Source: Escherichia coli (lineage in GTDB: Bacteria > Pseudomonadota > Gammaproteobacteria > Enterobacterales > Enterobacteriaceae). Taken from it: 64,000 bases of DNA. Shown here one piece after another: positions 32,798-63,305 of this stretch. Location: assembly GCF_044324785.1 (NCBI RefSeq), contig NZ_CP172127.1. One strand, 5' to 3'. Within the stretch, counting starts at the first letter, position 1, and each line of letters begins with the position of its first letter. The translations under genes were made by a program, and so were the position numbers. Under the pieces are notes generated by a model that was given only the letters and a program-made list of their open reading frames with translations, did no database searches and was not told the origin of the DNA.

Positions 32798-33397
32798 ATG
32801 AAGACTTACAACACCAATCCCGGTTACGAAATGGATCCCCAGCTCCTGACACACTTTAACCAGCATCTGGATTCATTATTCGGGGTATATTCGAAACTGT
32901 TACCGTTCAGAATGGATTTTGCTTACCGAAAAAACACCCTCAGCTACAGATGTGCCTGCAGGTACGCCATGTGCGCGGAGATACTGCGACTGATTAACGA
33001 AGTGGGAGAGAAACTGGTCGGGTATGCCTGGGTAATGGAATATACGGAACGTAAAGGGCTTCACATTCATTTTGTGGGCTATCTGAACGGTCAGAGCCAC
33101 AGGAGTTCGTATCTGGTATCCAGATTGATGGGAGATATCTGGAGGCGGGTTACCGGGGGGGATGGTTACTACCACTGGTGCCGGTTTAATAAAAATTATC
33201 CGGTAAACATTAACCACGTCATTCACTATTCAGATCACAAAGCGGTGAATGCCTTACGCTATGCCATCAGCTACCTGGCCAAACGAGAACAGAAAGAATG
33301 TGGCATCATCCTGAAATGCAGCGGGCTTCCTGAAAAAAGTAATCGGGGTCGACCGCGACTGGGCAGCCCCCTGCCGGAGACTTATTCTCTGGTGTAA
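32798..33397 (+). CDS. inovirus Gp2-type / YagK-YfjJ family protein (HUH replication-initiator-like)
   Basis: 199 aa; HUH-like LHIHFVGY motif; SD GAGGA. Confidence 0.65.
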   Translation: MKTYNTNPGYEMDPQLLTHFNQHLDSLFGVYSKLLPFRMDFAYRKNTLSYRCACRYAMCAEILRLINEVGEKLVGYAWVMEYTERKGLHIHFVGYLNGQSHRSSYLVSRLMGDIWRRVTGGDGYYHWCRFNKNYPVNINHVIHYSDHKAVNALRYAISYLAKREQKECGIILKCSGLPEKSNRGRPRLGSPLPETYSLV

Positions 33398-33762
33398 GAC
33401 CCTGAACGACAACTACGGGCTGGCGCTAATTGTTACAGTCGGTTCCGGAGGCCACTTCAGGGACTCTGCGCATTTTTTACGACATGGCTATTCCGTATGA
33501 ACCATACGGAGATTTAACCATGGCACATTCTTTACCATTCCTTCCGGCAACCGATACAGCACATCCTCCGATGTCCATCCCTGCCTGCTGACAGTTTTTT
33601 ACGCCGGAGGGCCATTGTGTGACAACCACAGTGCTGTAACAGCAACCAGCCTGCTTTACCCAAACTCCAGTCCAGATTTTAACTGAACCGCCATTCACAC
33701 CCTGACCACACTGCCCGTACCGGGACAGCTGTTGCCTGCGTGTCGTCTGGCTGCTGAGGAAT

Positions 33763-34152
33763 ATGACGATGTACGCAAAATCCTTTATTGCATTTGATGG
33801 CAACGGGCGTCTGACGGGTGCCCGTACCGCACAGACTGCACCTTACGATCGCTACACTTGCCACCTTTGCGGCAGTGCGCTCAGATACCACCCGCAATAC
33901 GACACTGAGCGTCCCTGGTTTGAACACACTGACGACGGGCTGACGGAGCACGGTCAGCAGTGCCCTTATGTCAGACCGGAACGCAGGGAGATACAACTGA
34001 TTAAGCGTCTGCAGCAATTCGTACCGGATGCCTTACCCGTGGTGCGTAAAGCCAGCCGGCACTGCAGACAATGTCATCACGATTATTATGGGGAGCGGTA
34101 CTGCACGCACAGCCATACCGGGCACTTCAGTGAGGAGGGGGTGGCAGAATGA
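33763..34152 (+). CDS. small zinc-ribbon protein (paralog 1 of a tandem pair)
   Basis: 129 aa; CHLCGSAL...WFEH followed by a C-terminal CxxC/His cluster; stop overlaps next start (ATGA). Confidence 0.5.
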   Translation: MTMYAKSFIAFDGNGRLTGARTAQTAPYDRYTCHLCGSALRYHPQYDTERPWFEHTDDGLTEHGQQCPYVRPERREIQLIKRLQQFVPDALPVVRKASRHCRQCHHDYYGERYCTHSHTGHFSEEGVAE

Positions 34153-34574
34153 ACGGTATAAAAACGGGGCTGGGGATCACGCCGGGTGAACACATTATCA
34201 GTGCTGATTCTGCGCTCAGCAGAAATATCCGGCAGTGTTTCTGCCTTTCCTGTCATGGCCGGTTGATTTTGCAGACAGATGCTCAGGGGGCGTGGTTTGA
34301 GCACGATTTACATGTCCTGAGCGAGCAACAGAAGGCAGCCTGCGTGGTGCTGAATCCGGAAAAGTCCCACCCTTACATTGAGGATATGGAGATGTTTTTA
34401 TCGCCATTACCGGTCGTGCTGGAGTGGCATTGTGTGATGTGTGAGCAGTTTTTTCATGGGAAGAAATTCTGTGAGGCCTGTGGTACGGGGATTTATTGCA
34501 GAGCGGTATGTACGAAGTCTGTTTACAGCTACCAGCCAGACTTGTTTCAGGACTGCGGAGGTGCGAGTACTTAA
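34149..34574 (+). CDS. small zinc-ribbon protein (paralog 2 of a tandem pair)
   Basis: 141 aa; CLSCHGRL...WFEH and CVMC...CEAC motifs parallel the upstream gene. Confidence 0.5.
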   Translation: MNGIKTGLGITPGEHIISADSALSRNIRQCFCLSCHGRLILQTDAQGAWFEHDLHVLSEQQKAACVVLNPEKSHPYIEDMEMFLSPLPVVLEWHCVMCEQFFHGKKFCEACGTGIYCRAVCTKSVYSYQPDLFQDCGGAST

Positions 34575-35045
34575 TCCGAAATGCCCGACCTGCTCAGGGC
34601 GTTCAGAAGTATCGGAACCTGCATTTTATCTGGTGTTTCGCACCCACCCCGTTCGTGACACAAAGGCGCGACACCGGATATCCGCAGTCCTGCTTACCTG
34701 AATAAAACCCGGGGTATTGATTGTGTACTGTGGTGCGAAATCGCACCGTGATCGCGGATTCGCCGAATCCGCACTGTGGTGTCAACCAACCATACGCGAG
34801 AGTCCTCTCCGTATTTATCAGTGCCTCAGGACGATTTCTGCATAGTTAATCCAGGGGGCTGCATTGTTTATTTCCCTGCTAATGGACGTGACATCCAGGA
34901 TATTCATGATCCTGATTTCCCTGAGCAGTATCAGCGCTTATTGGAGCGTCTGGATTATCAGACGATGCCCGGTACTAAAGCATCAGGCCAGCGTAACTCT
35001 GGCTACAGCGGTTTTTGACCTGTTGTAACTGTAAGGTGATTTATT

Positions 35046-35612
35046 ATGTATACAGAATCAAATGTTAAGCTTTCCTGTAACGCCCTCTGGCAAAAGTGTG
35101 TCCTTGCAACTCTGTATCGGGCTGCAGCCACACATCCTGAAATTAAATTATTACAATTTAAATTAATACCAGGGCAGGGTATTAATAAGGCCATTCCCTC
35201 TCTGATGGCTGATTTTACTGGTGAACTGCATAGACTCATTTCTGAATATTTGCAGTGTAAGCGACGTAAAGAGCAATCTGTTGAGCCCACCCCTTTATAT
35301 TATCTCTGGAGTAGGGAAGCTGTGGCTAACGATACCACTCCTTATCTTATGGTGCTGCTACTTAATAACGATGTCTGGTGTAAGAGTCGTGAGGTGGTGG
35401 TTCTCAGAAATCTGATTGAGCAGGCGTGGGGAAAAGTATTGGGTGAAGATAACTCCATTACACATCTGGTTGTGTATCCTGAAGTGCTGTCGTTGGTATT
35501 TGATGCAGCTAACACATACAACGCTGAGCCTGCTGTACTGGAACAGACGGCCCGGGCTTACATTGAATCACATGGTACCATTGAACGTCATCTTGGGTGT
35601 AGTGACTTTTAA
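35046..35612 (+). CDS. YagK-like (inovirus Gp2-type) protein with degenerate HUH motif
   Basis: 188 aa; YLWSRE...PYLMVLLLNNDVWC aligns with the HYHVILLLNKDTWC motif of the 57669 paralog but lacks both His. Confidence 0.6.
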   Translation: MYTESNVKLSCNALWQKCVLATLYRAAATHPEIKLLQFKLIPGQGINKAIPSLMADFTGELHRLISEYLQCKRRKEQSVEPTPLYYLWSREAVANDTTPYLMVLLLNNDVWCKSREVVVLRNLIEQAWGKVLGEDNSITHLVVYPEVLSLVFDAANTYNAEPAVLEQTARAYIESHGTIERHLGCSDF

Positions 35613-35957
35613 CGTCAGGTGATGCATAAGGGCCTTTCGCTGAGAGGCCCTGTTTACACAATTAAATAAATCGAGCCCGACCAACAATTTTGATGTTAAC
35701 AGCAGGATTATTGAGGGGCAATCAATGTGTTCTTCGGTAGCGATTACGGTAGTGAACGGACCTGCTGTCTGAATGGCATCGATCCGCAAGCGTATCGGCG
35801 CCATATTCTGAGCGTACTACTGAAATGGCTAATGGCAGTAAAGAGAGACTTTACGTATATTTGCATAAAGCAGGATTTTACGACTAGTCAACATTCTTTA
35901 TAATTCTTCAGGTTCAGAGTATCTGACATATAGGGTTATGTATTGGGGAGACATTTA

Positions 35958-36659
35958 ATGTTTGGCCATCTGTTACGATACTTTAGTTTCTGTAAAAAAG
36001 ATTTATTAGTATTTCATCCTGAATCTGATTACTCAGATAATTTACATAAAGCCTTCTCTTTTACAAAAAGGCTAGGATTTAATGAAGAATGGAATGGGGT
36101 CACAAAAAACAAAGAATATGATTATCAGGATGTATTCAGTCATGTCTGTCTGCAGTCTGGTGTGACAGACTTTTCCGCTTCAGCAGGACAATGCTTAAAG
36201 TGGAGTCATTATTTTCAGCCATATTTTGAGAATATCCTTGAATGTCGGGTATGGGTTACCGTTGGACAACTCTGGAAACAGGAACGATTTATTTACAATC
36301 CGTCAGTTGCGGATTTTCAGCGCTGGTCTGAAAAAGGGATTCAGCCTGAAGATTTTAGACATCACTCGGGGTTTAACTTTCATGCGTGGTTGACGACGGA
36401 AAATGGTGTGATTGTGGATGTTTCCTTTATGAGTACGTTATCGCGGCGATTACCTGAACACCTGAGTGAAGTCAGTGGAAGTGTGATTATTGGCACGCCA
36501 GAGACGGTTCTTCCTGAGTATAAATATGTTCCCATGATTGTCGGTCAGAGGATTGTTGAGAAAATAGAAAAACGCTCTTTCATTGGTTTTCTGGCGCACG
36601 ACGATATTGATTTATATACAGTACCTGCAATCTTGGTTCCGGTATGGAAAGAATGTTAA
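35958..36659 (+). CDS. hypothetical orphan cargo protein
   Basis: Track ORF starts at TTG 35943; ATG at 35958 preceded by GGGGAG; 233 aa; low GC; no recognisable motif. Confidence 0.5.
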   Translation: MFGHLLRYFSFCKKDLLVFHPESDYSDNLHKAFSFTKRLGFNEEWNGVTKNKEYDYQDVFSHVCLQSGVTDFSASAGQCLKWSHYFQPYFENILECRVWVTVGQLWKQERFIYNPSVADFQRWSEKGIQPEDFRHHSGFNFHAWLTTENGVIVDVSFMSTLSRRLPEHLSEVSGSVIIGTPETVLPEYKYVPMIVGQRIVEKIEKRSFIGFLAHDDIDLYTVPAILVPVWKEC

Positions 36660-36978
36660 AGCACGGAATAACACTATGCACTTACCGCTTTCCGGAACTC
36701 AGCTTGTTACCTGAGCGGTCAACAGAGCAGTCTTTCAGTGTCTGCACTTGGTTGCCACTAAACCGGAGTCATTTATCAGAAGTATATGTTCATGGAAGGA
36801 TATTGTCAGCGCCAGTGATATAAGACGGTAATGAGGATAGCCACCCCGCATGGGTTTCCTCAACACTGGTCACTGTGACAAGCGCACCATGATCGTCTTT
36901 GTATCGCTGATTGACTTTCGATAATAGAACATCTTCTGACATAAATTTTAGTACGGTAACAATTAACTAAATTTTCAT

Positions 36979-37245
36979 GTGGTAGCACTGAATCAGGAGA
37001 CTGCGTTTCCTGATGTGTGCTTCTGCAGCCGTTACCGGATACAGACTTCGATACCAGTTACTTCGACATCCGCCATGTGTCCTGGGACCCGCTATAACGA
37101 AGTTGGAGGTAATCAGTACAGCGTTCCCGAAATGCTGTGTGGTCAGCCAGTCTCGATACGAATATCGCTGAACGATGAGTTGCGGATCTACAGTAATGAG
37201 AAACTGGTGGCCTCACATCGCCTCTGCTCAGTGTCGTCTGGCTAG
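36979..37245 (+). pseudogene. IS21-family IstA C-terminal fragment (remnant)
   Basis: ...NQYSVPEMLCGQPVSIRISLNDELRIYSNEKLVASHRL resembles an IstA C-terminus; no N-terminal part. Confidence 0.35.
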
Positions 37246-37389
37246 CAGATAGTACCGGAACCTCACGCCCCGCTCTGGCAGCAGATCAGTCAGGTGGAAC
37301 ATCGACCACTGAGTGCCTATGAGGAGCTGTTGTGATGCATGTGTCAACGACGGATGAAAGTGGCTCTTCCGCAACCTGGGTGGAGATTT

Positions 37390-38816
37390 TCATGCCAGTG
37401 GACTCATTACCCTCTGCCTGAGTAGTTCAAATCCTGCTCGACCATACATCTGGCGTTTCAGCATCTTCAGGCGATTTACATGACCTTCGACAACACCATT
37501 ACTCCAGTGACTACTGATTGCCTCACATATAGCTGCAGCATCAGCTTCCATCCCCGCCGCCACGCGCCGAAATTCTGCTGAACCGCTTTCGTGGACTCGA
37601 GTGAACCAACTGCTTAGCTGTGATTTATTTTGGGTTTTCAGAATACGGTAGAACTCGAGTGCCAGTTGCTGCGCTATTTTCAGCTCAGGTTCTTTTTCAC
37701 ACATCAGACTAATAAATCGGGAAGCATAATTTTCTTCATCCCTGGTTATTCTCCAGGGCATCAACCAGCGGCTTACCCGGGACACTGAAGGAAGTCTGAC
37801 GGCAGTAGTAACCGGTGGGTTCCAGCCTTTACGCCATTTGGCAACCGCATCCCTGACGATGGTTTCACTGCCTGTAAATCCCCGGGCCACCATTTCCCGC
37901 CATATCCGGCTGGCGTTATAATTACCACTTTCTCGTTGCTCTTTTAACCACTCCCTCCATGGGTCCAGAAGCCCTCGCTTTGGCGGTCGGGTTGACATTT
38001 CAGGGAATGTTCCTGAACGCACCCAGCGACTGACTGTCACACGCGACAGGCCTGTAATACGGGATATTTCCCTGAAACTACATCCCTTGTTATGCAGGGC
38101 CATAACCTCTGTCCAACGCTGATGCCGTTTTTTGCGGGTTTGTTGTTTTAGGCGTTCCGGACGACGGAGCGATGCTGCAGGCACAGATGGTTCTGGATCA
38201 GGTGATTTCTTTGGTGACAACTCACTGGCAACAAGACGTATCAGAGGTATATGTCTATACATCATTCGTTCAGGCGCATCGCCAATATTTTTTAGCAGAT
38301 GCCATCGATCGGCCACCTGTCTGGCCTGAGGTGCACCTTCACGTGCTGCTGTCGCATAGACTCCACTGCGATCACGCGAGACAATCTGTATTTCCGGATA
38401 TTTTCTGAACCAGGTCGCCAGCGTACGCTGATCACGGCCGGGAAGCAGGACGAGGGGACGGTGAGTATCAAGATTGACGATTAACGTACCGTAACGGTGG
38501 CCCCGATGCCACGCCCACTCATCAATACCGACATGAGGCGAGCCTGACTGTTTCGTCTCCGGGGTATTGATAACCCTGCGAAGGAGAGTATCAGCACTGC
38601 AACGGAGACCCACTGCCGTTGCTGCCCGTTTCCCGGCCTCACCTCCGGCGATTAATCCCAGTTGACGTTGTAAATTTTGTAACGCCTGTGAAGACTGTTG
38701 GTGTGAACCGGCGAAGGGAGCAAGCGACTCGGCAAAAATTTTACGTGAACAAGCCGGGTTACGGCAGTACCAGTGGCGGACAGAAAATACAAGCCATAGC
38801 GTATGTCCTGAGCAGG
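37390..38816 (-). CDS. ISL3-family-like transposase, 5' end truncated by IS2
   Basis: GIDEWAWHRGHRYGTLIVNLD DDE-domain start and C-terminal SNGVVEGHVNRLKMLKRQMYG motif typical of ISL3; track ORF start lies inside the IS2 terminus. Confidence 0.5.
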
Positions 38817-38827
38817 TGGATTTGCCC

Positions 38828-39733
38828 CTATATTTCCAGACACCTGTTATCACTTAACCCATTACTGGCCTGCTGCCGCAGATATTCCCGTGGCGAGCGA
38901 TAACCCAGTGCACTATGCGGATGCCATTCGTTATAATGCTCGAACGCCTCTGCAAGGTTCTTTGCTGCCGTTAACCCGTCTGGTTTAGGCATGATACTGA
39001 TGTAGTCACGCTTTATCGTTTTCACGAAGCTCTCTGCTATGCCGTTACTCTCCGGACTCCGCACCGCCGTGTTCTTCGGTTCAAGCCCCAACATCCGGGC
39101 AAACTGCCGTGTTTCATTAGCCCGGTAGCATGAACCATTATCCGTCAGCCACTCTACTGGAGACGCCGGAAGCTCGTTGCCGAAGCGGCGTTCCACCGCT
39201 CCTGGCATGACGTCCTGTACTGTTTCACTGTCGAAGCCGCCCGTAGTGACTGCCCAGTGCAGTGCCTCACGGTCACAGCAGTCCAGCGCGAACGTGACTC
39301 GCAGTTTTTCTCCGTTATCACAGCGGAACTCGAACCCGTCAGAGCACCATCGTTGATTGCTTTCTTTCACGGCCACTTTGCCAGTATGTGCCCGTTTCGA
39401 TGGCGGTACAGCGGTTTTTCGCTCAAGCAACAGCGCATTCTGGCGCATGATCCGGTAAACACGTTTGGCATTGATCGCAGGCATACCATCAAGTTCGGCC
39501 TGTCTGCGAAGCAGCGCCCATACCCGACGATAACCATACGTGGGCAGCTCTCCGATAACATGGTGTATACGGAGAAGCACATCCGTATCATCTGAGTGAC
39601 GGCTGCGGCGACCATCTTTCCAGTCATCGGTTCGTCTGAGAATTACGTGCAACTGCGCACGCGACACCCGGAGACAACGGCTGACTAAGCTTACTCCCCA
39701 TCCCCGGGCAATAAGGGCGCGTGCGCTATCCAC
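38828..39733 (-). CDS. insD: IS2 transposase OrfB (InsD)
   Basis: 301 aa recognised as IS2 InsD (DDE integrase core). Confidence 0.9.
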
Positions 39734-40056
39734 TTTTTTGCACGCCCGTATTCAACGGCTTCTTTAAGGAGTTCATTTTCCATCGTTTTTTTGCCGAGCA
39801 GGCGCTGGAGTTCTTTAATCTGCTTCATGGCAGCAGCAAGTTCAGAGGCAGGAACGACCTGCTCTCCTGCGGCCACAGCAGTAAGACTTCCCTCCTGGTA
39901 TTGCTTGCGCCAGAGAAATAACTGGCTGGCTGCCACACCGTGTTGCCGGGCAACAAGGGAGACCGTCATTCCCGGTTCAAAACTCTGCTGAACAATAGCG
40001 ATCTTTTCCTGTGTAGTACGCCGTCTGCGTTTCTCCGGTCCTAAGACATCAATCAT
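39691..40056 (-). CDS. insC: IS2 OrfA (InsC)
   Basis: [56 protein letters not shown]; track ORF trimmed to MIDVLG. Confidence 0.9.
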
Positions 40057-40931: not shown

Positions 40932-41099
40932 TCACACTGCTGAAAGCAAAGCGGCCAGTGCGGATTATTTGTCATTTATTCGGTGTTCACCGTAGCGTTT
41001 ATTACGCGCAGGTGAAGCGTCCTGTTAATGTATCAGCGCCAATGATATAAGACAGTAATTAGGATTCGGACGATTTCCTGGACTGCTTTATTATGCCAG

Positions 41100-42868: not shown

Positions 42869-44131
42869 CTATTTTAATGGATTGTTAATCTTTGCATATT
42901 CAAACGGGCTGATACATTGTTCTCTGTTCGCACCCAGAAAATCTGCCCACCACTGTAGCATCAGTCGACGTTCTTCCAGATGTTCTGCTTTATGGATATA
43001 TGCAGCACGTACACCATTACGCTCCTGATGGCTCATCTGACGTTCCACAGCATCGCGGGACCACAAACCTGATTCAATCAATGCACTGCACGCCATCGCC
43101 CGGAATCCATGACCACAGACTTCCTGGGTTGTGTCATATCCCATCACCCTCAGGGCTTTATTTACAGTATTTTCACTGATCGGTTTACGCGGGTCATGTG
43201 CTCCCGTAAAGATCAGACCATTTTCACCAGCCCATGTCTGTAGTTCTGTCAGTATGGCTACAGCCTGTTTGCTGAGTGGCACAAGATGTGGTGTTCGCAT
43301 CTTGGAGCCCCGGTGTGAGTATTTTACGCCTGGCAGAGGTTCGCGTTCGGCTGGAATAGTCCACATGGCATTGTCAATATCAATTTCAGACCAGCGGGAA
43401 TATCTGAGTTCACTGGAACGAATAAAAACCAGTAAATTCAGCATAACTGCCAGTCGGGTGACAGGCTGACCTTTATAACCGTCAATACGCGACAGAAGTT
43501 CAGGCAGGCGTGAAAGATCCAGAGCAGGGCGATGCTGGCGTTTTACCGTGGTCAATGCACCAGCCATATCCAGAGCCGGGTTATATCTGATGATGCCAGA
43601 CTGTACGGCATAACGCATTACAGCAGATATTCTTTGCTGCAGACGACTGGCGATTTCATAAATTTGTTTTGCTTCTGCAGCACGAACAGGGATAAGCAGG
43701 TCCGGGGTATTGAGTGTTGTGATATCCCGGTTGCCGATAAAGGGGAAAACGTGTGTCTCGAGGCTTTTGATTACTTTATCGCTGTGTGATTGTGCCCATT
43801 GTTTATTACTGGCATGCCAGCGTCGTGCAATATGTTCAAAAGAGAGTTGTAAATCAGGGACTACTTTTTTAGCTCTTTTTTGTTCGCAAGGGTCAATCCC
43901 CTCTGAAATCAGTTTTCGGGCCTCATCCCGTTTTGTACGAGCTTCGGAGAGAGAAACTTCTGGATATACACCAAGTGCCAGAGTCTTCTCCTTACCCAGA
44001 ATACGATAACGGAGACGCCAGTAACGGGAACCATTAGGATGAACCAGCAGGAACATGCCAGCCCCGTCAGTGAGTTTATAAGCCTTGTCAGTGTGCTTTG
44101 CAGCCCGGATTTTTGCGTCAGTCAGTGCCAT
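42869..44131 (-). CDS. P4-type (IntA-like) tyrosine integrase
   Basis: 420 aa; MALTDAKIRAAKHTDKAYKLTDGAGMFLLVHPNGSRYWRLRYR N-terminus typical of P4-family integrases; next to tRNA-Phe 3'-end repeat. Confidence 0.85.
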   Translation of the reverse strand: MALTDAKIRAAKHTDKAYKLTDGAGMFLLVHPNGSRYWRLRYRILGKEKTLALGVYPEVSLSEARTKRDEARKLISEGIDPCEQKRAKKVVPDLQLSFEHIARRWHASNKQWAQSHSDKVIKSLETHVFPFIGNRDITTLNTPDLLIPVRAAEAKQIYEIASRLQQRISAVMRYAVQSGIIRYNPALDMAGALTTVKRQHRPALDLSRLPELLSRIDGYKGQPVTRLAVMLNLLVFIRSSELRYSRWSEIDIDNAMWTIPAEREPLPGVKYSHRGSKMRTPHLVPLSKQAVAILTELQTWAGENGLIFTGAHDPRKPISENTVNKALRVMGYDTTQEVCGHGFRAMACSALIESGLWSRDAVERQMSHQERNGVRAAYIHKAEHLEERRLMLQWWADFLGANREQCISPFEYAKINNPLK

Positions 44132-44317: not shown

Positions 44318-44328
44318 TGATATGAATT

Positions 44329-44594: not shown

Positions 44595-44921
44595 TTATGG
44601 CTGCCAGAAATGATCTGATGGTTTGTCGTCTGGCTCTGCAAGTACCCTGTTGATATCCCGGGAACCATGAACGATACGTTCGATACGAACTTCAGTATCC
44701 AGTACCCTGAACAGCAGAAGGTAACGACCATACGAACAACCTCTGATCCCAGCCCCTAACTCGGGTCTTTCTCTGTAGAGTACTGGCGATTCGGCTATCA
44801 ACAGACATTGTTGGTAAAGCTCTTCGGTAAAACTGATTGCACGGACAGGATTATCCTGAGCGATCCAGTCACCTATAGCTTCAAGATCGTGTTCTGCTAA
44901 TGGTGAAACAGTCAGTTTCAT
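44595..44921 (-). CDS. parE: ParE/RelE-family type II toxin
   Basis: 108 aa; overlaps upstream antitoxin gene by 4 bp. Confidence 0.7.
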   Translation of the reverse strand: MKLTVSPLAEHDLEAIGDWIAQDNPVRAISFTEELYQQCLLIAESPVLYRERPELGAGIRGCSYGRYLLLFRVLDTEVRIERIVHGSRDINRVLAEPDDKPSDHFWQP

Positions 44922-50331: not shown

Positions 50332-50336
50332 ACCGG

Positions 50337-53034: not shown

Positions 53035-53997
53035 ATGACGGCACAACAAAGTGATGCGCTGCGTGAGATTGCTAATAAGGCCAGAGTTACCACCATTCTT
53101 CAGTGTAAGGCCTGGAAAGATACCCAGCGAATACTGAAGCGCAGCGGACTCGTGTGCAGAGAACGGTCAGAGCCGTTTGATCCGGAGAAACATTTTGACT
53201 GTTATACGGTGCGTTATCTGTACCTGCTTAACATAATGGCACTTGAGCTAAAGTCAGATACACGGATTAAGGTTGAGGTGGGGCAATGGTATCGCATGAC
53301 GGGTAAACGTTTATCACTTAATGTCCCGCCTTTTATGCTGATCCCGCGTAATATCCGGAGAAAAGTGGACGGATTCAGACAATCCAGACAATCAGAAGAT
53401 GAAGCAACCAAAAATCCGCCTCAACCGTTCACGGGCAGTTTGTATAAGGTTTTGAGCAGGGACAGCGATTCGGCTGAGCTGGACGCCTGGTTTGCTGAAC
53501 CGCCGCTGACACGGCAGGAAGTGTGGGAGGGGAGGCGTGTTACAGATTTTGATCCATGGGCGCTGTCTTCGTTTATTTGCCGTTCAGAATCCCCGACGTT
53601 TGAACTTTTTTACCAGGAATATAAGCGACTGGGATTAAAATCTCTTTTTGTATCAGGGGTAATGTTTGAACAGTTTTTAACAGGGCTAAGTTTCAGAAAA
53701 TATGGGGACTGGGTTGAATCTCAGTTACTGGAATCACTGGGAAATGTGATGTTTTTCATGCTGCTTTATGACATGGAAAATCTGGATAAGTTTATAAAAG
53801 AACTGATGGACATTAATGTTCAAAGTGAAGATTCGAAGGAAAAAGGGAAATCACGAAAAGAGAGAATGCTGGAGTATATCAACTCATATATCCGCAATGT
53901 TTATGGAAGATTCCTTTGTACGTCAAAAGAAAGGTACGAACAGCATAAACGCAAAAACAGCAGCAAAAAGAAAAACGGTTCTGGTGGAACTCATTAA
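53035..53997 (+). CDS. hypothetical protein (orphan)
   Basis: 320 aa, ATG with GGGAGG SD; Lys-rich C-terminus; no recognisable motif. Confidence 0.5.
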   Translation: MTAQQSDALREIANKARVTTILQCKAWKDTQRILKRSGLVCRERSEPFDPEKHFDCYTVRYLYLLNIMALELKSDTRIKVEVGQWYRMTGKRLSLNVPPFMLIPRNIRRKVDGFRQSRQSEDEATKNPPQPFTGSLYKVLSRDSDSAELDAWFAEPPLTRQEVWEGRRVTDFDPWALSSFICRSESPTFELFYQEYKRLGLKSLFVSGVMFEQFLTGLSFRKYGDWVESQLLESLGNVMFFMLLYDMENLDKFIKELMDINVQSEDSKEKGKSRKERMLEYINSYIRNVYGRFLCTSKERYEQHKRKNSSKKKNGSGGTH

Positions 53998-54848
53998 CGG
54001 GAATAATCCCCTGCTGTTTTCTGCATAAACAGACGATCAGCTGATAAGATGAGTTTATCCAGCATTTCAGCCTGCGTCAGATTATTCTTTTTTGCCATTT
54101 TCCGGAGTGCATTCCTGGCTTCCGGAGAAATCAGGGCACTTATCTGTACCCGGGAATCGGTTTTCTCATACCGGAACATTTTCTGGTATGAGCACTTCAT
54201 GCGCCTGAGAAAATCATTCTGCTGATAAACTAATTCTTTTAACTTTTGAGGTTCAGTACCGACAGAATAGATTTTCATGAAGACACGGCGCACATAAGCT
54301 ATTATGAACAGACGTGACTCCCCTGAAGCTTTAAATTCTGAAATATCAGGACAGTGACGTTCTTCGTCAGTGCAATGTTTTTGCAGATACGCCCATGCCC
54401 ATTTGATATGTATCCGCCGGGAACCAAGCCATGTCATGGGGTTCACTTTTTCAGCATATGACCATAAAAAATGAACGACATACAAGAAGTCAGATACATT
54501 TTCTGTCCCGGTTAGCCTTATAAGCTCCTGTAGCCATTTTCTCGTCACACGAATCCTTGCCTGATGATTAGCTGGAGCTGCTTCTGTGGCAAACAGTCTG
54601 GCATACAGACAGGAAGTTCCGTAATCTGCATATTGCTCACCTGAGAGTCGGACAATACTGTCAGGAACATGATATATAAACATCCATACCCAGAATGCGG
54701 CTACAGGGTCTTTTTGCACCCACTCCGGAACAACGTCTCTGCCTGCATTATCAGCATTAACAGAAGGTGATTTATCGTTATGTCGGTAATATTCATATTC
54801 CATCCGACTAAAAACATGATCAGATTCATCTGGTGAATGCACAGACAT
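53994..54848 (-). CDS. hypothetical protein with C-terminal RHH-like segment
   Basis: Track ORF 53994-54863; preferred start MSVHSPD preceded by AGGGAG; 3' end overlaps the convergent gene by 4 bp. Confidence 0.5.
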   Translation of the reverse strand: MSVHSPDESDHVFSRMEYEYYRHNDKSPSVNADNAGRDVVPEWVQKDPVAAFWVWMFIYHVPDSIVRLSGEQYADYGTSCLYARLFATEAAPANHQARIRVTRKWLQELIRLTGTENVSDFLYVVHFLWSYAEKVNPMTWLGSRRIHIKWAWAYLQKHCTDEERHCPDISEFKASGESRLFIIAYVRRVFMKIYSVGTEPQKLKELVYQQNDFLRRMKCSYQKMFRYEKTDSRVQISALISPEARNALRKMAKKNNLTQAEMLDKLILSADRLFMQKTAGDYSR

Positions 54849-55810
54849 GAACTCCCTGGGCATAAATGCACAACCAACTCTATAGAACTCTTTACCCCCC
54901 CTCTTATCACCTCTGTCAGTAAATTTCGCCTGAATCCCCTTTTATCCATACATCAGAAAAAATGCAATAACGTTCATGGACTCTTTTCTCTGATTTACAT
55001 AAAAACACAGAAAATTACAATGTGATTAATATCGCGTTTTTTTAAAAAATTATATTGACATCATGTTATTTCCTGTAGTTTGCAATAAAAAATTTTCTTA
55101 AAATATTTATATGAATATTTTTGATGCCTCAACATGCTGTCGTTATATAGAGTGTCTTCTCATCATTTATGGTTATTTCTCTCAATGCGCATACGCTCTG
55201 TCAGGGCATGTCTGTAGCTGCCATGATGGGGAATGAGAACTCAGCAAAAGGATTTTGGATGCAGTGAAGTTCTCCCGGAGACGGTTCTTCTGAGGTGGGG
55301 GTGGCATCATATCCTCTTACATAAGATGATGGCGTGCGCGGGAAAGCTTTCTTCTGTACTCAGGTTGTTGTTGGTTATCCCCGGTCGTCATTGTTTTCCT
55401 GACATTAAGATCCTGATTCCAGGATCTATAGCACAGTCGTTTCCTTGTGTGCTGTTATGCTTCTGCTCAGTTCAGAACAATTGCTTCATCCGGCATGGAG
55501 AATTCCGGTGAGTGAGGCAGTAAGAAATGACTGACATGAATGTTATATGTGAAGGGGCCGGAGAGACGTCATAATCAGTATGGCTGTCATTCTGGCTGGA
55601 AAATGCGATCACTTTCCGGGGTAAAAGACAACATGGAAGCTGACGAACGGGATGCTCCGGATGGTCTTTTCAGGGAGGCCTGGGTAAATAATTTCAGAGT
55701 AAATCTGTATGTTTTTTAAACAGTAAAGATCCATGCTGGCCGTGAAAAACTGAAATCAACACTCAGTCTGCATGGATGTCTGAAGATGTTGAGAATGTCG
55801 GGAATGGTAC

Positions 55811-55906
55811 TATACACGTATTTTACTAAGTATTTTTACTAAGCATTTCAGTAAGTGTTATACACGTATTTTCTACTAAGTGTTTTACCAGACATACACG
55901 TATTTT
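55811..55906. repeat. iteron-like direct repeats (T)ATACACGTATTTT x3 with associated ACTAAGT motifs
   Basis: Three copies spaced about 35-48 bp apart inside a 1.6-kb non-coding region. Confidence 0.45.
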
Positions 55907-56468
55907 CATAAACACTTCTACAAGTGTTTTCGTTAAGCATTGCTATACACATCCAGTTTAGTAAATCTTTACGTTAACTAAATCAGTTTAATGCTGCTGT
56001 AAAACCTTTCTGTTTAAGCAATCAATCTGCTATTCGATTTTACTGATGTTACGTTTAACCTTTCCTTAGATTTCGAGTTTCGACGTTAGCTTGAGAAAAG
56101 TATCTTTACGTAAAGCCCAGTGAATTAACTCAAATCCGATTGAGGTAACCTGATGCGATTTACTGTGAGTTTGCGATAACACTGTTAAATGGCTTATGGA
56201 TGATTTTGTAACGGCGAGATTGATAAGGTGATTAACTGGCCCTGGTGTTTTTTCTCAGCGTAAGGTGATTATCTTCATCATAAGGCTCTTTTCAGAAAAA
56301 GTGTGATGATTGGTTGTGGTGTTTTGATTCAGATGAGGATCTGCCAATGATTATGATGTATTGTAAGAAATAACGCCTTCAGAATGTTGGAGCATGCACT
56401 TACACAAACTGTTTTTCTAAAATTAAGGGAACAGTTTAAAGAGTATAAACTGTTCATCTTCTTCAGGA

Positions 56469-56999
56469 TTAAGCTACATTGTTGTTATGACTGACAGGAT
56501 TGTTTTCTTCCCCTGACTCTGGGCTTAACAGTCCCTGGCGTTGTAGATATTCACTGACTGACATTCCAGAACTACGGATCCTGTCAGAGATTTTACGAAA
56601 TTGATCCTTCCATTCTGCAGGTAATTTCTTAATTTGTCTGACTTTACAGGCTACACTGTACGGGGTTCGCCCTAGTTTCTCTGCCAGCCAGAAAAGGTGT
56701 TTACCAATTTCATCGTCCGGTACATCCTCCAGAACATCTCGCAATAAACTCTCGTCTGCCTCATTCCATGCCACACCAGCATTTGGGAAACGAGGATCGA
56801 TCTCTCTTTCCTTCTTCTCCTTCTTACTTTGCTCTTTTCGGGATGATACAGATACGACAGAACGTTCTTTTACCGCTGTAATTGCCATAACTGCATTGAG
56901 CAGAGATCTGCGCTCCACATCGTTCAGCATTTTTCCTTCACAGATCAAATCATTCAGGATGTCAATGACTAGATTCAGACTTTCTTCTGTTAGCTTCAT
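56469..56999 (-). CDS. hypothetical protein (orphan)
   Basis: 176 aa; charged central linker; no recognisable motif. Confidence 0.5.
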   Translation of the reverse strand: MKLTEESLNLVIDILNDLICEGKMLNDVERRSLLNAVMAITAVKERSVVSVSSRKEQSKKEKKEREIDPRFPNAGVAWNEADESLLRDVLEDVPDDEIGKHLFWLAEKLGRTPYSVACKVRQIKKLPAEWKDQFRKISDRIRSSGMSVSEYLQRQGLLSPESGEENNPVSHNNNVA

Positions 57000-57668
57000 A
57001 TTTCAGACCTTGAAGTATGTAGATAATCAGCACAATTACTAATGTGATAAATATCAGAAGATAATTTACAGGTAAACCGGAAAATACATCTGAAGAATAA
57101 AGGCCTCAGCTTAACGTTTCAGCCAGTTTGTGAGCTGATTGAGGTACGGCGATGACATTAACGGGAATTACTCCCCTATAGCTCTGAGCTTATTTTTCAC
57201 CCTGGCAACATATGGTGGCTACTGCGCATGGTTTTGGAGTAGATATCTTACTACTCGTAGAATTGTGCTTACTGGTCAGGCCAGCGCACAGGCATTCCGT
57301 GCAATCAATAGAACACTGGTTTTTTAGTCTTCCGTTACCCATCAGGATGTTAGTGCAGATTCCGGTGTATTCGATCAGTTGTTCGGCGAATCAGCGATCG
57401 ATCACGATGCGATTTCGTATGTTAGGGATGCTGGTATGATTACTCGCTGAAAAATAATGTGAAAAGGCAGTTTTTCTTTAGACATTTAGCTCATTCATGC
57501 TGTTGTTTTACGTTTTGCTGTCGTGTGCAGGATTATCTTTTCGTTACGGGACGATTCATTCCGTTTTAATCAGGAGCTATTGGCGTTGCTCATTGGTGGG
57601 ATGCCGTAAAGTTTTACCGCGGCGATTAATGATGTGAAGTCAATCCAAATCAACGGAGATCTCTCATC

Positions 57669-58400
57669 ATGAATCAACCAATACACAATGATTACTGGTT
57701 ATCCCGTTTTGAAAGTATTCTCAACAGTGCCCTGGTGCAACACCGTGCCGTCTCGTTAATCCGGGTGGATTTACGTTTCCCTGAGCATATGCCTGTCACC
57801 ATCATGGATCCCGATCCGGATTCAGCGGTGATTTCTCGTTTTTTCGAATCCCTGAAAGCCAAAATTCAGGCTTACCAGCGGAAAAAACGACGTACCAACA
57901 AGCGTGTGCGTGCAACCACCCTGCATTATTTCTGGTGTCGGGAGTTTGGCAAGGAAAAAGGCAGGAAACATTATCACGTGATATTACTGCTCAACAAAGA
58001 TACCTGGTGCTCGCCAGGGGATTTCACCGTTCCTTCTTCGCTGGCGACGCTGATCCAACTGGCATGGTGTAGCGCTCTGCATCTTGAGCCCTGGCAGGGT
58101 AATGGACTGGTTCATTTTTCCAGGCGGACGCCTTTCCGTAAACCGGCATCATCTGATGCTCGCCCTTCTTCCGATGATACGCCTTTGTCGGGTGGATGTT
58201 CTGAAACCAGGAAGGCTTCAGACAAAAAGCCGGGTGAAGCCGCTGTTCTCTGGATCAAGCGTGGTGATGTGGAAGCGATGCAGAAAGCCATGGAGAGAGC
58301 CCGTTATCTCGTGAAGTATGAGACGAAGCAGCATGACGGTTCTGGTCAACGTAATTATGGTTGCAGCCGTGGAGCGGGGCGTCTACTGGATGGCAGGTGA
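57669..58400 (+). CDS. YagK-like inovirus Gp2-type protein (HUH replication-initiator-like)
   Basis: 243 aa; HUH motif HYHVILLL; SD GGAGA. Confidence 0.65.
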   Translation: MNQPIHNDYWLSRFESILNSALVQHRAVSLIRVDLRFPEHMPVTIMDPDPDSAVISRFFESLKAKIQAYQRKKRRTNKRVRATTLHYFWCREFGKEKGRKHYHVILLLNKDTWCSPGDFTVPSSLATLIQLAWCSALHLEPWQGNGLVHFSRRTPFRKPASSDARPSSDDTPLSGGCSETRKASDKKPGEAAVLWIKRGDVEAMQKAMERARYLVKYETKQHDGSGQRNYGCSRGAGRLLDGR

Positions 58401-58726
58401 ACCCTGTAAAAAGGCATCCGGTGCCAGAGTATATGTCACAGTAAGGGCGTGGTTGACGCCCTTAGCTCGTTTTCTGAAAAAGTCGTCCTGAAGTCATGCA
58501 ATGTTTCCTGGTTTTCATGCATCCATCATTTGTCGCTGCGATGCCAGACTTCTGGATGCACACATGTTGTTTTACTTTTGTCAGCATCATAAATGCGCCG
58601 GGACTGGTGAATGGAGATAAGCCATTTTATTATCGACGTCAGCGAACATACTCACCATGCCGGTATGTTCCTGAACTGAACAATAAGTTTTGCGCTGATT
58701 ACAGTATGTGAAGGAGGTCCGTTACA

Positions 58727-60331
58727 ATGAATTCCGCTTATATGCAATCCTTGCAGACATCCCACCACTTCCCAGCTGATTTAACCTACAGATTATTTCC
58801 TAGTGAGCTTGCATATCTCATTGACGACTTATATGAAAGTACCCAACTTCCGCTGGAGCTCATTTTTAATACTGTACTGGCAACGCTCTCACTCTCCTGT
58901 CAGTCACTGGTTGACGTTGTTCATCCTCACACCAACATGCCGGAACCCTGCTCACTTTATCTGTTGGCAATCGCAGAGCCAGGCGCGGGAAAAACAACGA
59001 TAAACAGACTGGTGATGAACCCCTGTTACGAATTTGCCGATCGACTCATTCAACAATACGAAGAGAGAAACAAAGATTATAAGACTGAACTACAGATCTG
59101 GAATACCCGGCAGAAAGCGCTTGCTGCCAATTTAAGAAAGGCTGTTAACCGGGGGTATCCGGGGGAACAGGAAGAAGAGGCGCTGCGTAATCACGAAAGA
59201 AATAAACCGACACGTCCGGTTCGACCGAATTTTATCTATGAAGATGTTTCGCTTAAAGCGCTTGTGGAAGGGCTCAATGAACATCCTGAGGCAGGGGTTA
59301 TTTCTGACGAGGCGGTCACTTTTTTCAGAAGCTATCTGAAAAATTATCCGGGCCTGTTGAATAAAGCATGGAGTGGACAACCGTTTGATTTTGGACGGGC
59401 TGACGAGAAATACCATATCACGCCACGTCTGACATTTTCGTTAATGTCCCAGCCGGATGTCTTTACGAATTATATAAATAAAAATGACGTACTGGCGTGG
59501 GGAAGCGGATTTCTTTCCCGGTTTCTGTTCAGTCAGACCGGAAGTCCTTCCCGGGTACGGGATTATACGAGAGGCGAGTTCAGAACAAAACCAACCCTGG
59601 AGAAGTTTCATAAAAAGATTAACGGATTTCTGTTAAGCCATAACATTAATTCCCCCGGTATGAGCACCGAAAGGAAAACATTAAAACTTGCAAAGAAAGC
59701 GTTGGGGGAGTGGCAGGAAAACCAGATTAAGATTGAAAGAAAAGCGCTTGCAGGAGGGGAGTGGGAACACATCAGAGATATTGTTCTGAAAGCAGGTTCT
59801 AATATACTGAGGATAGCTGGAATATTCACCTGCTATTGCTATAAAGATGCTGAGGAAATTGAATCAATTGCGCTTTTTAAAGCTATGCATCTCATGGACT
59901 GGTATCTGGAGGAGGCGAGCACAATATTTTATCCCATGTCTGCACGATGCCAGTTTGAACAGGATGCCTGTGAACTGTATGCATGGATTATGACCCGAAT
60001 AAGGCAGAATAATTGGCGTGCTATCAGGAAAACAGACATTGAAAGATATGGTCCCAATCGTCTGAGAAGAGCAGAAAAACTTACACCTGTACTCAATCAG
60101 TTAATCGCTCAAAATTATTTCCGTATCATCAAGATGCGATCGCATCAGGCACTTTATGTTTCTGCTCTTGATAATAATGGTTACATCCTTCCTTTCGGCG
60201 CAATGTCTTACGAACCGTTTGATATTGTTCCACCCCAGTATAACCATAATGCGAAAACATATTCCGTTGTTATTCCACCGGCATTAATTCAGTCATTTAC
60301 ACCTGATTCCTCAGCTTACACCTTATTTTAA
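58727..60331 (+). CDS. YfjI-like island protein with Walker A-like P-loop
   Basis: 534 aa; AEPGAGKTT motif; strong SD GAAGGAGG. Confidence 0.6.
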   Translation: MNSAYMQSLQTSHHFPADLTYRLFPSELAYLIDDLYESTQLPLELIFNTVLATLSLSCQSLVDVVHPHTNMPEPCSLYLLAIAEPGAGKTTINRLVMNPCYEFADRLIQQYEERNKDYKTELQIWNTRQKALAANLRKAVNRGYPGEQEEEALRNHERNKPTRPVRPNFIYEDVSLKALVEGLNEHPEAGVISDEAVTFFRSYLKNYPGLLNKAWSGQPFDFGRADEKYHITPRLTFSLMSQPDVFTNYINKNDVLAWGSGFLSRFLFSQTGSPSRVRDYTRGEFRTKPTLEKFHKKINGFLLSHNINSPGMSTERKTLKLAKKALGEWQENQIKIERKALAGGEWEHIRDIVLKAGSNILRIAGIFTCYCYKDAEEIESIALFKAMHLMDWYLEEASTIFYPMSARCQFEQDACELYAWIMTRIRQNNWRAIRKTDIERYGPNRLRRAEKLTPVLNQLIAQNYFRIIKMRSHQALYVSALDNNGYILPFGAMSYEPFDIVPPQYNHNAKTYSVVIPPALIQSFTPDSSAYTLF

Positions 60332-60930
60332 AACAATTTTGTGAGTAGAAAACGAAAATCATAATCCTTCGAATGAAGGTTGATGATAAGGTGTGTTGCA
60401 TATCCTGCACCTGTGCAAATATTCACCAATTATTGGGTGTGAATGAAAATTTCTCTGAAAAAATCGCTATGGTAGCAACAGTAGCAGCACATACACTACA
60501 TCTGTGATTTGGTTTTGTTTTCATAATGACCTGCTGTCAGAGCTGATTGAATGCTGGGATGTGCGCACTGGTGGAAGAGTGGTTTTCGTTTCAGATATAA
60601 CGAAAGGCAATCGAAAGATTGTTTTAAACATGGATTAAAGCTAATCATTAACCATATTGTGTGAGTTTTTATATATAAGTTTGTTTGATTCTTGCCGTGA
60701 TGAGTGCTGGGGTATATGACGATGTCGCTCTCTTTCTGAATAACAAATTATTATTCGTCTGTTACTGATAAGGGATGCGATTCATGTTTTAATAGATGGT
60801 TGAAGAAAATTAATTTGATATTTTTTTTGTAAGGGAATGGAACTGTCCGGAATATGTTCAGAACGGCGGATTTCTCATTTCCATTCATTAAACATGGATA
60901 ATTTTAATTTAGGTTTATTACTATTATTAT

Positions 60931-61045
60931 ACTCACTCCCTTTTTGATATAATCTCTATTGTTATTTACTTCCTGTCTTTACTCACTCCCTTTTTCATAC
61001 AATCTCTATTGTTATTTACTTCCTGTCTTTACTCACTCTCTATCT
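60931..61045. repeat. 50-bp tandem direct repeat (about 2.3 units)
   Basis: ACTCACTCCCTTTTTGATATAATCTCTATTGTTATTTACTTCCTGTCTTT repeated immediately with two mismatches, then a partial third unit. Confidence 0.6.
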
Positions 61046-61920
61046 TTACGATTATATTCACTCTATCGTTACACATTCCATTAGTATTACTCTTGTTATC
61101 GTATTCATTCCATCCCTCAATCATATTTACTGTAACTCATATGATGTTCAGGTAAGTTATTCTCTACCATTCTACTGATGATATTCATCTGTTCTCATTT
61201 TCACTGAAACAGCAATTAATTTTAATCTTATCCATCATGAGCTGTATTTTCTTAACAATGGTTGTTTATCTGAAGTGTTTTAACTATTCTGATGAACATC
61301 AATTCTTTTGTCATTACTGATTAACCGAATGTTTACTTTTTGATAAGGTATCCATGATTCTGTAACGATTAACAGAGCTGGATAAACAATGGAATTGACA
61401 GGAGAGATTCCTGATTATGTTTGTTCTGGGTTGTATTATCTAAGATGCAGGATGAAAATCATGTCAGTGGTATTTTTTATTCTGCTATCGTGAGCCGTGA
61501 ATGTTCATGTCCTTAAGAACAGATTGAATGAGCGCATATAAGTTTATTGCATTGGCCTTGTACACAGTTTTTACAACCACTGAGAGCAAGTTTGTAGTTT
61601 ATGATGTGATTGGTCGCAATATGTTTCTTAACCTTCTGGACGTGGTGTTTTATCGCGTATTTACAGTATTTCGTGATGTTTTATTGAGTCTGTATTTTCT
61701 TTACTCCTCGTTTATCTCATCTCTTTAGCTAATACCATCAGATAATCCATTTCTTTCTGCATAATGCTGCGTATCGTTAATAACCCGTCGTATCCATTCT
61801 GCTACAGCATGCCTGATAAATACCATCTGTAAGTTATTACCGTTTTAGATCTGATTATGAGCGAAAGCATTAATTCGTTCACAGAGCTTAAAACATCATT
61901 AACTTTCAGGAGTCATCAAC

Positions 61921-62487
61921 ATGCCTAAATCTTACACACCAAACTGGTTTTTTACCGCTTTACTTGACAATCACATCAATCAAATGATGGCACGCTATTC
62001 CTGCCTGCGGGCCTTACGGATGGATTTCTTCTACAGGAAAGATACGCCTGATTTCTTACAACCTGATCATCGCTGGCTTGAATTGCAGTTGCGTATGCTG
62101 CTGGAGCAGGTGGAACAATTTGAAAATATCGTTGGTTTCTTCTGGGTGATTGAATGGACGGCTGATCATGGTTTTCATGCGCATGTGGTTTTCTGGATCG
62201 ATCGTCAGAGGGTTAAAAAAATATATCCCTTTGCGGAGCGGATAGCGGAATGCTGGCGGTCTATTACGCATAACAGCGGTTCGGCACACCGCTGTACATA
62301 TCAGCCGCATTATACATACAACATCAACATTCCTGTGCGCCACAACGATCCTGAAAGCATCGATAATATTCGCGGTGCCCTGCATTATCTGGCAAAAGAA
62401 GAGCAAAAAGACGGGCTGTGTGCCTACGGCTGCAATGAAGTTCCTGAACGTCCTGCTGCAGGGCGTCCTCGTAAGCCTCACTTCTGA
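61921..62487 (+). CDS. YfjJ-like inovirus Gp2-type protein (HUH replication-initiator-like)
   Basis: 188 aa; HUH motif FHAHVVFWI; SD AGGAG. Confidence 0.7.
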   Translation: MPKSYTPNWFFTALLDNHINQMMARYSCLRALRMDFFYRKDTPDFLQPDHRWLELQLRMLLEQVEQFENIVGFFWVIEWTADHGFHAHVVFWIDRQRVKKIYPFAERIAECWRSITHNSGSAHRCTYQPHYTYNINIPVRHNDPESIDNIRGALHYLAKEEQKDGLCAYGCNEVPERPAAGRPRKPHF

Positions 62488-62744
62488 AGCTTAAATCCTG
62501 AGCTTCCTGTCCTGGAAACACTCCGTCGGTAAAAACTTACCGCCTTGCTTAATGATGTGAACTGAAGTCAACGGAGATCATTCACTCTGAACCACATCCG
62601 GTGTTCTGTCCCTTGTCGGTGACCTGATCTTCCCGTTCTGCCCCGGTTCTTCACTTATTCCATCAACCCCATCCGCAAACCATAACACGTCAGCTTATTC
62701 ACGGGCAGGACGCATTGTGGGCTGCGCATAACGGAGCATATCTT

Positions 62745-63305
62745 ATGAATGCTATCCCTTATTTCGACTATAGCCTGGCCCCCTTCTGGCCATCTTATCA
62801 GAACAAAGTCATCGGCGTCCTTGAGCGTGCGCTGCGTGAGCAGTCCGGCTCACGGATACGGCGGATCCTGCTTCGTCTGCCGTGTGAATATGACAATACC
62901 TTCAACAGCAGAACGACCTGGTTTGGTATGGATTTTATCGAAACCGTCAGTGCGCTGATGAATGCAACACCCGGACGTGACCTTTGCTGGCTCCTGACCC
63001 GTCATCCTGAAAAACCGGAATACCATGTGGTGCTGTGCGTCAGACAGGAGTATTTCGACGGCCCCGAACTGGATCGGTTGATTCTGGATGCCTGGAGTAA
63101 CGTGCTGGGTTTCGCGTCACCAGGTGAAGCAAAGCCGTACCAGAAGCAGATCACCCGGGATGTGGTACTGGATCGCCGGTCACCGGACTGCGAAGCCCTG
63201 TTTAAGGACCTTATCTGGGCGTTCAGTGATTTCGCCCGCGATCGCCGTGGAGTGCGCGATCCGGAAGCCCGTTGCCTCGCCGGTAATCCCGGTTGGCAGT
63301 GCTGA
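62745..63305 (+). CDS. YagK/YfjJ-related protein with partial HUH motif
   Basis: Track ORF starts at TTG 62715; ATG at 62745 after ACGGAG; motif PEYHVVLCV has one His only. Confidence 0.5.
   Translation: MNAIPYFDYSLAPFWPSYQNKVIGVLERALREQSGSRIRRILLRLPCEYDNTFNSRTTWFGMDFIETVSALMNATPGRDLCWLLTRHPEKPEYHVVLCVRQEYFDGPELDRLILDAWSNVLGFASPGEAKPYQKQITRDVVLDRRSPDCEALFKDLIWAFSDFARDRRGVRDPEARCLAGNPGWQC

Follow-up and report, generated by a model that had tools for sequence, protein, structure and literature searches.

Genes of the YagK/YfjJ type are among the commonest uncharacterised genes of the genomic islands of Escherichia coli, and such islands carry adhesins, toxins and anti-phage systems. In K-12 the family (Pfam PF11726) is represented by YagK, in the island CP4-6, and by YfjJ, in CP4-57, both of which carry the motif series RVDL...HYH...YxTK...GCS, as does one of the genes described below; a search of the literature on YfjJ, YagK, PF11726, DUF3296 and 'inovirus Gp2' returned gene lists and the phrase 'function unknown' only. 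We have analysed a stretch of 64,000 nucleotides of E. coli DNA (contig NZ_CP172127.1 of assembly GCF_044324785.1; hereafter the window) that contains five genes of this kind, at 32798, 35046, 57669, 61921 and 62745, which we call P1 to P5. A copy that keeps the catalytic motifs of the family is called live and one that has lost them dead; these labels are based on the motifs and imply no more than that.

The motif logic of the family, a histidine-hydrophobic-histidine (HUH) pair and a single tyrosine, is that of the gpII/G2P initiators of filamentous and other small phages, to which P1, P3 and P4 are linked by profile similarity (PF23343) and P3 also by PHROG families. Those initiators belong to a phage context, whereas the window genes lie in integrase-bearing islands or, elsewhere, on large plasmids, with no origin found. 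With the HUH domains of parvovirus NS1, adeno-associated virus (AAV) Rep, SIRV1 ORF119, Helitron Rep and pMV158 RepB identity is just 10-15%, and in the window a DUF3987 gene of its own, not a fused superfamily 3 (SF3) domain, encodes the helicase. In papillomavirus E1 and simian virus 40 (SV40) large T, the origin-binding domains demonstrate that the fold can survive without its catalytic residues: the HUH pair and the tyrosine have been lost, and a sequence-specific DNA-binding module has been kept beside a helicase. Those are domains of one viral polypeptide, however, whereas the dead copies of the window are separate genes beside live paralogues. A search for literature on inactive HUH domains or pseudoenzymes found nothing relevant.

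Measured against K-12, P3 is alike in family, length class, motifs (RVDL, HYH, Y-x-T-K, GCS), island type and the neighbours alpA and yfjI. P1 and P4 differ, forming a separate clade that is linked to the YagK type by profiles only, and three copies, P2, P5 and a sixth that is cut by the end of the window (P6), have lost the catalytic residues that YagK and YfjJ keep. No dead partner stands beside yagK or yfjJ in K-12, unlike the window. Our analysis leads us to conclude that all these copies share a common ancestry and one HUH-nuclease-like fold, and that P2 and P5, and apparently P6, are without the metal-binding pair of histidines and the tyrosine and are nonetheless under purifying selection.

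Live and dead members of one family

All five open reading frames (ORFs) are present where an earlier note on this DNA had placed them, and all are on the plus strand. P1 (32798-33397, 199 aa) and P4 (61921-62487, 188 aa) are of one live-looking type, P1 with RMDF, HIHF, YLAKREQK and a C-terminal RGRPR, P4 with RMDF, HAHVV, YLAKEEQK and AGRPRK. P3 (57669-58400, 243 aa) is live-looking and of the YagK/YfjJ type, with RVDL, HYHV, YLVKYETK and GCSRG. P2 (35046-35612, 188 aa) is a degenerate YagK type, with QFKL in place of RVDL and PYL in place of HYH, and P5 (62745-63305, 186 aa) is also degenerate, with EYH in place of HYH and Asp162 in the column of the catalytic tyrosine. The ORF list gives a longer frame that starts at a TTG (62715) and encloses P5; the database homologues of P5 begin at the ATG. 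The label 'YfjJ-like', which the note had given to the P1/P4 group, was wrong, as K-12 YfjJ and YagK both resemble P3.

The relatedness of the five genes is well past chance. PF11726 (YagK_YfjJ_C) matches four of the five members at E <= 0.001 (P3, E 5.9e-36; P4, E 1.7e-4; P1, E 4.3e-4; homologues of P2 bear a precomputed match), and PF23343 (REP_ORF2-G2P) matches three (P3, E 1e-7; P1, E 9.9e-5; P4, about 1e-4). P5 itself gave no direct match to PF11726 in Pfam, and its remote relatives P0230 and P0235 do bear it. By BLASTP, P1 and P4 are 32% identical (E 2e-33), P2 and P3 share 32% identity across some 100 residues (E 2e-11), and P5 is marginal (E 0.04). Profile comparison with hhalign joins the clades: against a YagK-type profile built from 18 diverse sequences, the P1/P4 profile scored 95.5% (E 1.4e-8, 171 columns), with RMDF paired with RVDL, HAH with HYH and YLAKEEQK with YLVKYETK, and the P5 profile scored 98% (E 2.7e-13, 158 columns). 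The P5 profile includes two full-length remote relatives that were found by searching 1.8 billion representatives exhaustively with HMMER. On all these matches the five genes are therefore true paralogues, as had been supposed. The P5 family is narrow and mostly from E. coli; we call it taxonomically narrow because a scan of the whole species-genome collection with its profile gave only two loci.

In RefSeq, four of the five already carry names of the 'inovirus Gp2 / YagK/YfjJ' type (P1 is an 'inovirus-type Gp2 protein'), and the fifth is called 'hypothetical'. PHROG 'replication initiation protein' families match P3. NCBIfam and PADLOC gave no informative match for the five proteins and their neighbours, and linked no known defence system to them; no PDB sequence matched P3 or P4, even at E <= 10. 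The word 'inovirus' in these names reflects remote profile similarity only, because homologues are nearly absent from phage records: among 50,697 of them P3 had one match and P4 two. In place of coat, assembly and single-stranded-DNA-binding genes and a phage origin, the neighbours are integrase, AlpA, DUF3987, toxin-antitoxin and antirestriction genes.

A single alignment column holds HIH in P1, HAH in P4, HYH in P3, PYL in P2 and EYH in P5. The histidines in question do fall at the HUH column of the family, three copies (P1, P3 and P4) keep the His-hydrophobic-His motif, and the motif changes noticed earlier at 35046 and 62745 are real; the five copies do not share one motif state. Among the residues invariant across the 18 YagK-type sequences are RVDLR, H101, H103, Y213 and K216. 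P1, P3 and P4 retain all three motifs, RVDL or RMDF, HUH, and YxxK (YLAK, YLVK and YLAK, respectively). P2 has lost both histidines (PYL) and in two alignments has no tyrosine at the YxxK column. In P5 the catalytic tyrosine is gone, Asp162 being paired with Y213 of P3 by hhalign, and in its remote relatives the motif reads CYH or FYH, and the helix of motif III likewise has no tyrosine.

The AlphaFold model of P3 (predicted local distance difference test score, pLDDT, 75; predicted template modelling score, pTM, 0.76) places HYH on strand 100-109 and Y213 within helix 201-214, and its predicted fold is that of an HUH nuclease. The marks of the HUH superfamily, His-hydrophobic-His on the central beta-strand and the tyrosine of YxxK on a helix that follows the core sheet, are both found in P1, P3 and P4; P2 and P5 have neither, and the P6 type lacks the first. 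Loss of nicking activity in P2 and P5, which the note had suggested, is the natural reading of these sequences, since the HUH set and the tyrosine have both been lost.

Three further features of the proteins were seen. P3 has an insertion of about 45 residues, rich in Ser, Pro and Asp, at about residues 152-196 (window 58122-58256, pLDDT < 50), which is E. coli-specific, being absent from homologues in Providencia, Brenneria and elsewhere; several 214-aa database variants of P3 have a frameshift within the insertion and end before the catalytic tyrosine. AT-hook-like C-termini occur in P1 (RGRPR, 33350-33370), in P4 (AGRPRK, 62455-62475) and in a P4-type gene of a related locus, L013 (SGRPRK), and the YagK type is without them. 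The window allele of P5 ends in ...GNPGWQC (63285-63305), where most alleles end in ...GNPWYPVAGQL or ...GNPGYPGSAGLF; the difference comes from a frameshift or small indel at the very end.

A sixth copy and the remnant of a seventh

The window breaks off within P6 (63886-64000, plus strand), of which it holds the first ~38 codons. P6 is a degenerate paralogue of the Pfam UCP030791 type; against the Pfam library that we used it gave no match. Its full-length homologue at L001:19830-20378 has IRC at the HUH column, and across the P6 type this column reads IRC or ECK and the region of motif III cannot be aligned. A P6 profile made of two near-identical sequences scored only 6.7% against the YagK type by hhalign; with the addition of a homologue from a Klebsiella plasmid the score was 95.6% (E 1.3e-8). 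The P6 type has a Pfam family of its own, and its members in L013 and on the Klebsiella plasmid are 59% identical. P6-type homologues follow a dead gene of the P5 type in L013 and in another related locus, L015, and one is present on that plasmid (L011).

Just before P2 lies the 3' end of a gene of the K-12 yagK type, at ~34880-35018 on the plus strand (within the ORF 34776-35018; the left edge is approximate), comprising the last ~45 codons and reading ...RLDYQT..TKASGQRNSGYSGF to the stop. In strain NT1N25 the gene is intact (L009:4539-5153; 204 aa, with CHYHV and RLDYLTK) and stops 27 bp upstream of the P2 homologue, which implies that the ancestral state was a tandem pair of one live and one dead gene. 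The window thus holds three live-looking copies, two complete dead ones, one dead copy cut by the window end and one remnant. The 238-aa ORF at 35943-36659, 3' of P2, was tested as a relative of P6 and rejected.

The dead copies are under purifying selection

We estimated the ratio of non-synonymous to synonymous divergence (dN/dS) by the Nei-Gojobori method among E. coli alleles. For the dead gene P5 it was 0.14-0.26 in pairs with dS >= 0.10 (dS up to 0.41), and for the dead gene P2 it was 0.24-0.34 (dS up to 0.12). The live genes gave 0.11-0.35 (P4), 0.32 (P3) and 0.22 (P1), so that live and dead genes share one range. Between the P2 alleles of L008 and L009 there are 12 non-synonymous differences at 434 sites versus 14 synonymous differences at 130 sites, which by our own arithmetic is about 3.7 standard deviations below the neutral expectation. 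The cluster of full-length P2 has 3028 member sequences, and the full-length clusters of P2 and P5 run to thousands of members. The dead clades recur in distant relatives (CYH, FYH) and on the Klebsiella plasmid. On these ratios we reject the reading of P2 and P5 as pseudogenes.

Islands, neighbours and gene order

The window was compared with K-12 CP4-57 and CP4-6 and with the RefSeq annotation of loci that match it at 94-100% identity across these genes; it resolves into two tandem islands of the CP4-6/CP4-57 type in the same orientation, with an integrase between them: the left island ends in a tyrosine integrase gene (42869-44131, minus strand), and the right one begins with ParDE at 44595 and runs past the end of the window. 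The integrase, the yee/yfj/ykf backbone and the alpA-yfjI-yfjJ-type module that define such islands are all found. Each backbone comprises CbtA/CbeA, RadC, antirestriction, DUF932 and GTPase genes, to which the left island adds Ag43, and each island also has a module of AlpA-like, zinc-ribbon, YfjI and inovirus Gp2/YagK/YfjJ genes. No tRNA gene lies inside the 64-kb window, and attachment sites were therefore not seen.

By megablast against complete E. coli genomes the window is ordinary island DNA. The 8-kb region from P3 to P6 (56-64 kb) matches 2996 of 5426 genomes; the P4+P5 pair is found at >=80% coverage in 1544 of them and the block from P1 to P2, at the same coverage, in 354. Related islands occupy up to 6-10 places per genome.

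The earlier note had seen the five genes as flanked by orphan genes. This failed for most of the neighbours, which belong to the DUF7828/zinc-ribbon, DUF3987 and AlpA families, and held for the ORF at 35943-36659, which has no family match. A DUF7828/zinc-ribbon gene (33763-34152, plus strand) and a second putative zinc-ribbon gene (34149-34574, plus strand), both named after RefSeq annotation of a homologous locus, lie between P1 and P2. The former is a recurrent neighbour of Gp2 genes, and its family adjoins AlpA and Gp2 in L015 and L011. P3 stands directly upstream of a YfjI-family DUF3987 gene (58727-60331, plus strand; phrog_2373 DNA helicase, E 5.6e-43; PF13148, E 2.1e-74) that encodes a putative replicative helicase, and P5 is followed by an AlpA/excisionase-like helix-turn-helix gene (63374-63607, plus strand; TIGR01764, E 3e-4; phrog_2790, E 4.6e-10). 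The remark that each copy is next to variable cargo was borne out to this extent: downstream cargo differs between strains and can be pap fimbriae, cdiBA, dGTPase with nucleotide-metabolism genes, or a glycosyltransferase.

A dead gene follows a live one in each of four related loci. The order is yagK-type then P2, with the 27-bp gap, in L009; zinc ribbon-AlpA-live-P5 type-P6 type in L015; AlpA-live P4 type-...-P5 type-P6 type-DUF2913 in L013; and live-AlpA-zinc ribbon-zinc ribbon-P6 type-DUF2913 in L011, the Klebsiella plasmid (IncFIB/HI1B). The window itself has P4-P5-AlpA-P6. A Citrobacter plasmid island has int-...-AlpA-YfjI-Gp2 and then a type I restriction system, as in K-12 CP4-57; alpA, yfjI and yfjJ are contiguous both there and in K-12.

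Two other features of the window lie elsewhere. By the divergent AT-rich region, a 289-aa ORF (53994-54863, minus strand) has a weak RepA-family match (NF010256, E 7.4e-5, well below its cutoff). The sole Rfam match is an IS102 RNA (21823-22059, minus strand, 64.8 bits); it lies far from the Gp2-like genes, in the left island, where it is at the 5' end of the Ag43-like gene region.

Leaders and repeats

Immediately before the P3 start codon lies a leader, TTAATGATGTGAA...TCAACGGAGATC (57626-57661, plus strand), of which a second copy (62549-62579, plus strand) stands between P4 and P5, ~165 nt upstream of the P5 ATG. Apart from this repeated leader we found no element common to the upstream regions of the paralogues. 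It may have a shared role in regulation or in translation initiation, or else be a trace of common origin. A related sequence, TCAACGGGGATA (63868), was seen ahead of the P6 start.

The repeat-rich flanks that the note had described amount to three short tandem arrays, at 31711-31767 (26 nt x 2.2), 55811-55888 (25 nt x 3.2) and 60930-61038 (50 nt x 2.2), which sit in AT-rich non-coding DNA upstream of P1, P3 and P4, respectively; that part of the description stood, whereas the 50-nt array proved not to be kept with P4 elsewhere. Upstream of P4 the sequence is very rich in A and T, with 35% GC at 60-62 kb. The idea that the adjacent repeats are nicking substrates was dropped as unsupported, since the 50-nt array is not conserved and our search found no convincing hairpin or nick site.

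Discussion

Tentatively, we suggest that the live copies nick DNA for the replication or transfer of the excised island and that the dead copies bind DNA without catalysis, as partners or regulators, a role in regulation or recognition that the earlier note had also considered and that is plausible by analogy. In such a scheme a live protein would cut one strand somewhere within the island and remain linked to the 5' end through its tyrosine, and the free 3'-OH would prime rolling-circle-type replication, or transfer, of the excised island. YfjI would be the helicase, AlpA a regulator or excision factor, and the live Gp2-like protein the initiator. The dead paralogues would keep the DNA-binding surface of the fold and leave the DNA uncut; they would be either accessory subunits for site recognition or regulators or competitors, which would determine specificity among the several related islands of one genome. 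DUF3987 proteins have been argued to be replicative helicases related to minichromosome maintenance (MCM) proteins, and usually lie beside a primase gene (Kazlauskas et al., PMC4889955). In the position of that primase a single-tyrosine HUH nickase would supply a 3'-OH, and a nick-primed, rolling-circle-type module is therefore favoured. A more specific version, which we think doubtful, is that one catalytic HUH nickase and one or two anciently inactivated paralogues (P5, P6/UCP030791 or P2) form a heteromeric initiation or transfer complex, or else an exclusion or specificity system that chooses which co-resident island is nicked, conserved in enterobacterial islands and plasmids.

Several observations weigh against the general proposal. 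Upstream of P1, P3 and P4 we found no conserved hairpin or iteron that might be the nick site, and the 50-nt array, present in the closest relative alone, does not accompany P4 in other genomes. P4 is a pseudogene, with a frameshift or an internal stop, in two other E. coli strains (L006:7001-7569 and L007:7001-7567), and although the adjoining live gene is broken there, P5 is intact and stands, with an AlpA-like gene, directly upstream of a pap fimbrial operon. Some genomes (H57-H62) match only the P5 half of a P4+P5 query, and P2 of the window persists beside a live partner that has been destroyed. Intact P5 with broken P4, and P2 beside a remnant, imply that a dead copy needs no live partner in cis. 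P5 also retains one histidine, and its glutamate could in principle bind metal. Finally, our literature search found no nicking, replication or DNA-binding experiment on any member of the family.

That P2, P5 and P6 are functionless, decaying relics of duplicated nickase genes might be thought from the loss of every catalytic motif, from the many truncated or frameshifted variants in databases and from the altered C-terminus of the window P5 allele, but this explanation is largely refuted and we give it very little credence: dN/dS is 0.14-0.34, with P5 dS reaching 0.41; reading frames are intact in thousands of genomes; remote P5-type relatives, at ~30% identity, keep the same substitutions and gene position; and the P6 type is a separate Pfam family with 59% identity between L013 and the Klebsiella plasmid. 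It is just as improbable that the dead copies are still catalytic by way of relocated residues. P2 does have a tyrosine 4-5 residues past the aligned position, and P5 keeps E-Y-H, with a glutamate able to bind metal; both P2 histidines are gone, however, the relatives of P5 have Cys or Phe in place of that glutamate and no tyrosine in the motif III helix, and in the P6 type the HUH column reads IRC or ECK, with a motif III that cannot be aligned.

For the live copies, the main alternative is that they are mobilisation relaxases that nick an origin of transfer (oriT) in the island, whose single strand is then exported by a helper plasmid, the dead copies being relaxosome accessories and the island an integrative mobilisable element. 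This is unlikely, though far from negligible. Across the divergent AT-rich region lie genes of the kind found in plasmid leading regions (KlcA-type antirestriction, DUF932, RadC, DUF905), transcribed away from the Gp2 side, and the cassette occurs on plasmids too (a homologue of P3 is present in 64 plasmid records, of which 39 are typed as conjugative); yet no oriT-like nick region or hairpin was found, nor any convincing inverted repeat upstream of P1, P3 or P4, no relaxase family was matched in Pfam, NCBIfam or PHROGs, and the adjoining replicative-type helicase suits replication at least equally well. Less likely still is that the whole family is no nuclease but a primase-like protein with a palm fold related to archaeo-eukaryotic primases (AEPs), or a DNA-binding or regulatory protein, acting as partner of the DUF3987 helicase. 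P3 is indeed in the spot just upstream of the helicase gene where a primase gene usually lies (PMC4889955), Foldseek also lists the AEP domain of African swine fever virus (ASFV) PrimPol (probability 0.5-0.87), and one aspartate in RVDL is invariant. An AEP, however, has DxD and sxH on its palm fold, whereas here a lone invariant acidic residue stands in place of DxD; the invariant HxH and helix-borne Y-x-x-K are an HUH signature; and profiles tie the family to rolling-circle initiators (PF23343 and the PHROG replication-initiation families).

Both the family and the island type were known and annotated, and our result is a modest, testable addition rather than a new system. The sorting into live clades and at least three selected dead clades beside live copies appears to be undescribed. 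Should the live copies prove to be initiators acting alongside the DUF3987 helicase, the 'cryptic prophages' in question would own a nick-primed module for replication or transfer, which would bear on their persistence after excision and on the spread of pathogenicity and defence islands. Selected dead paralogues beside live ones would be clear bacterial examples of pseudo-enzymes derived from HUH enzymes, and would offer a way to study how islands that share a genome achieve specificity or incompatibility. Should the heteromeric or exclusion model prove true, they would constitute a 'pseudo-nickase' layer of control that is undescribed for bacterial HUH enzymes.

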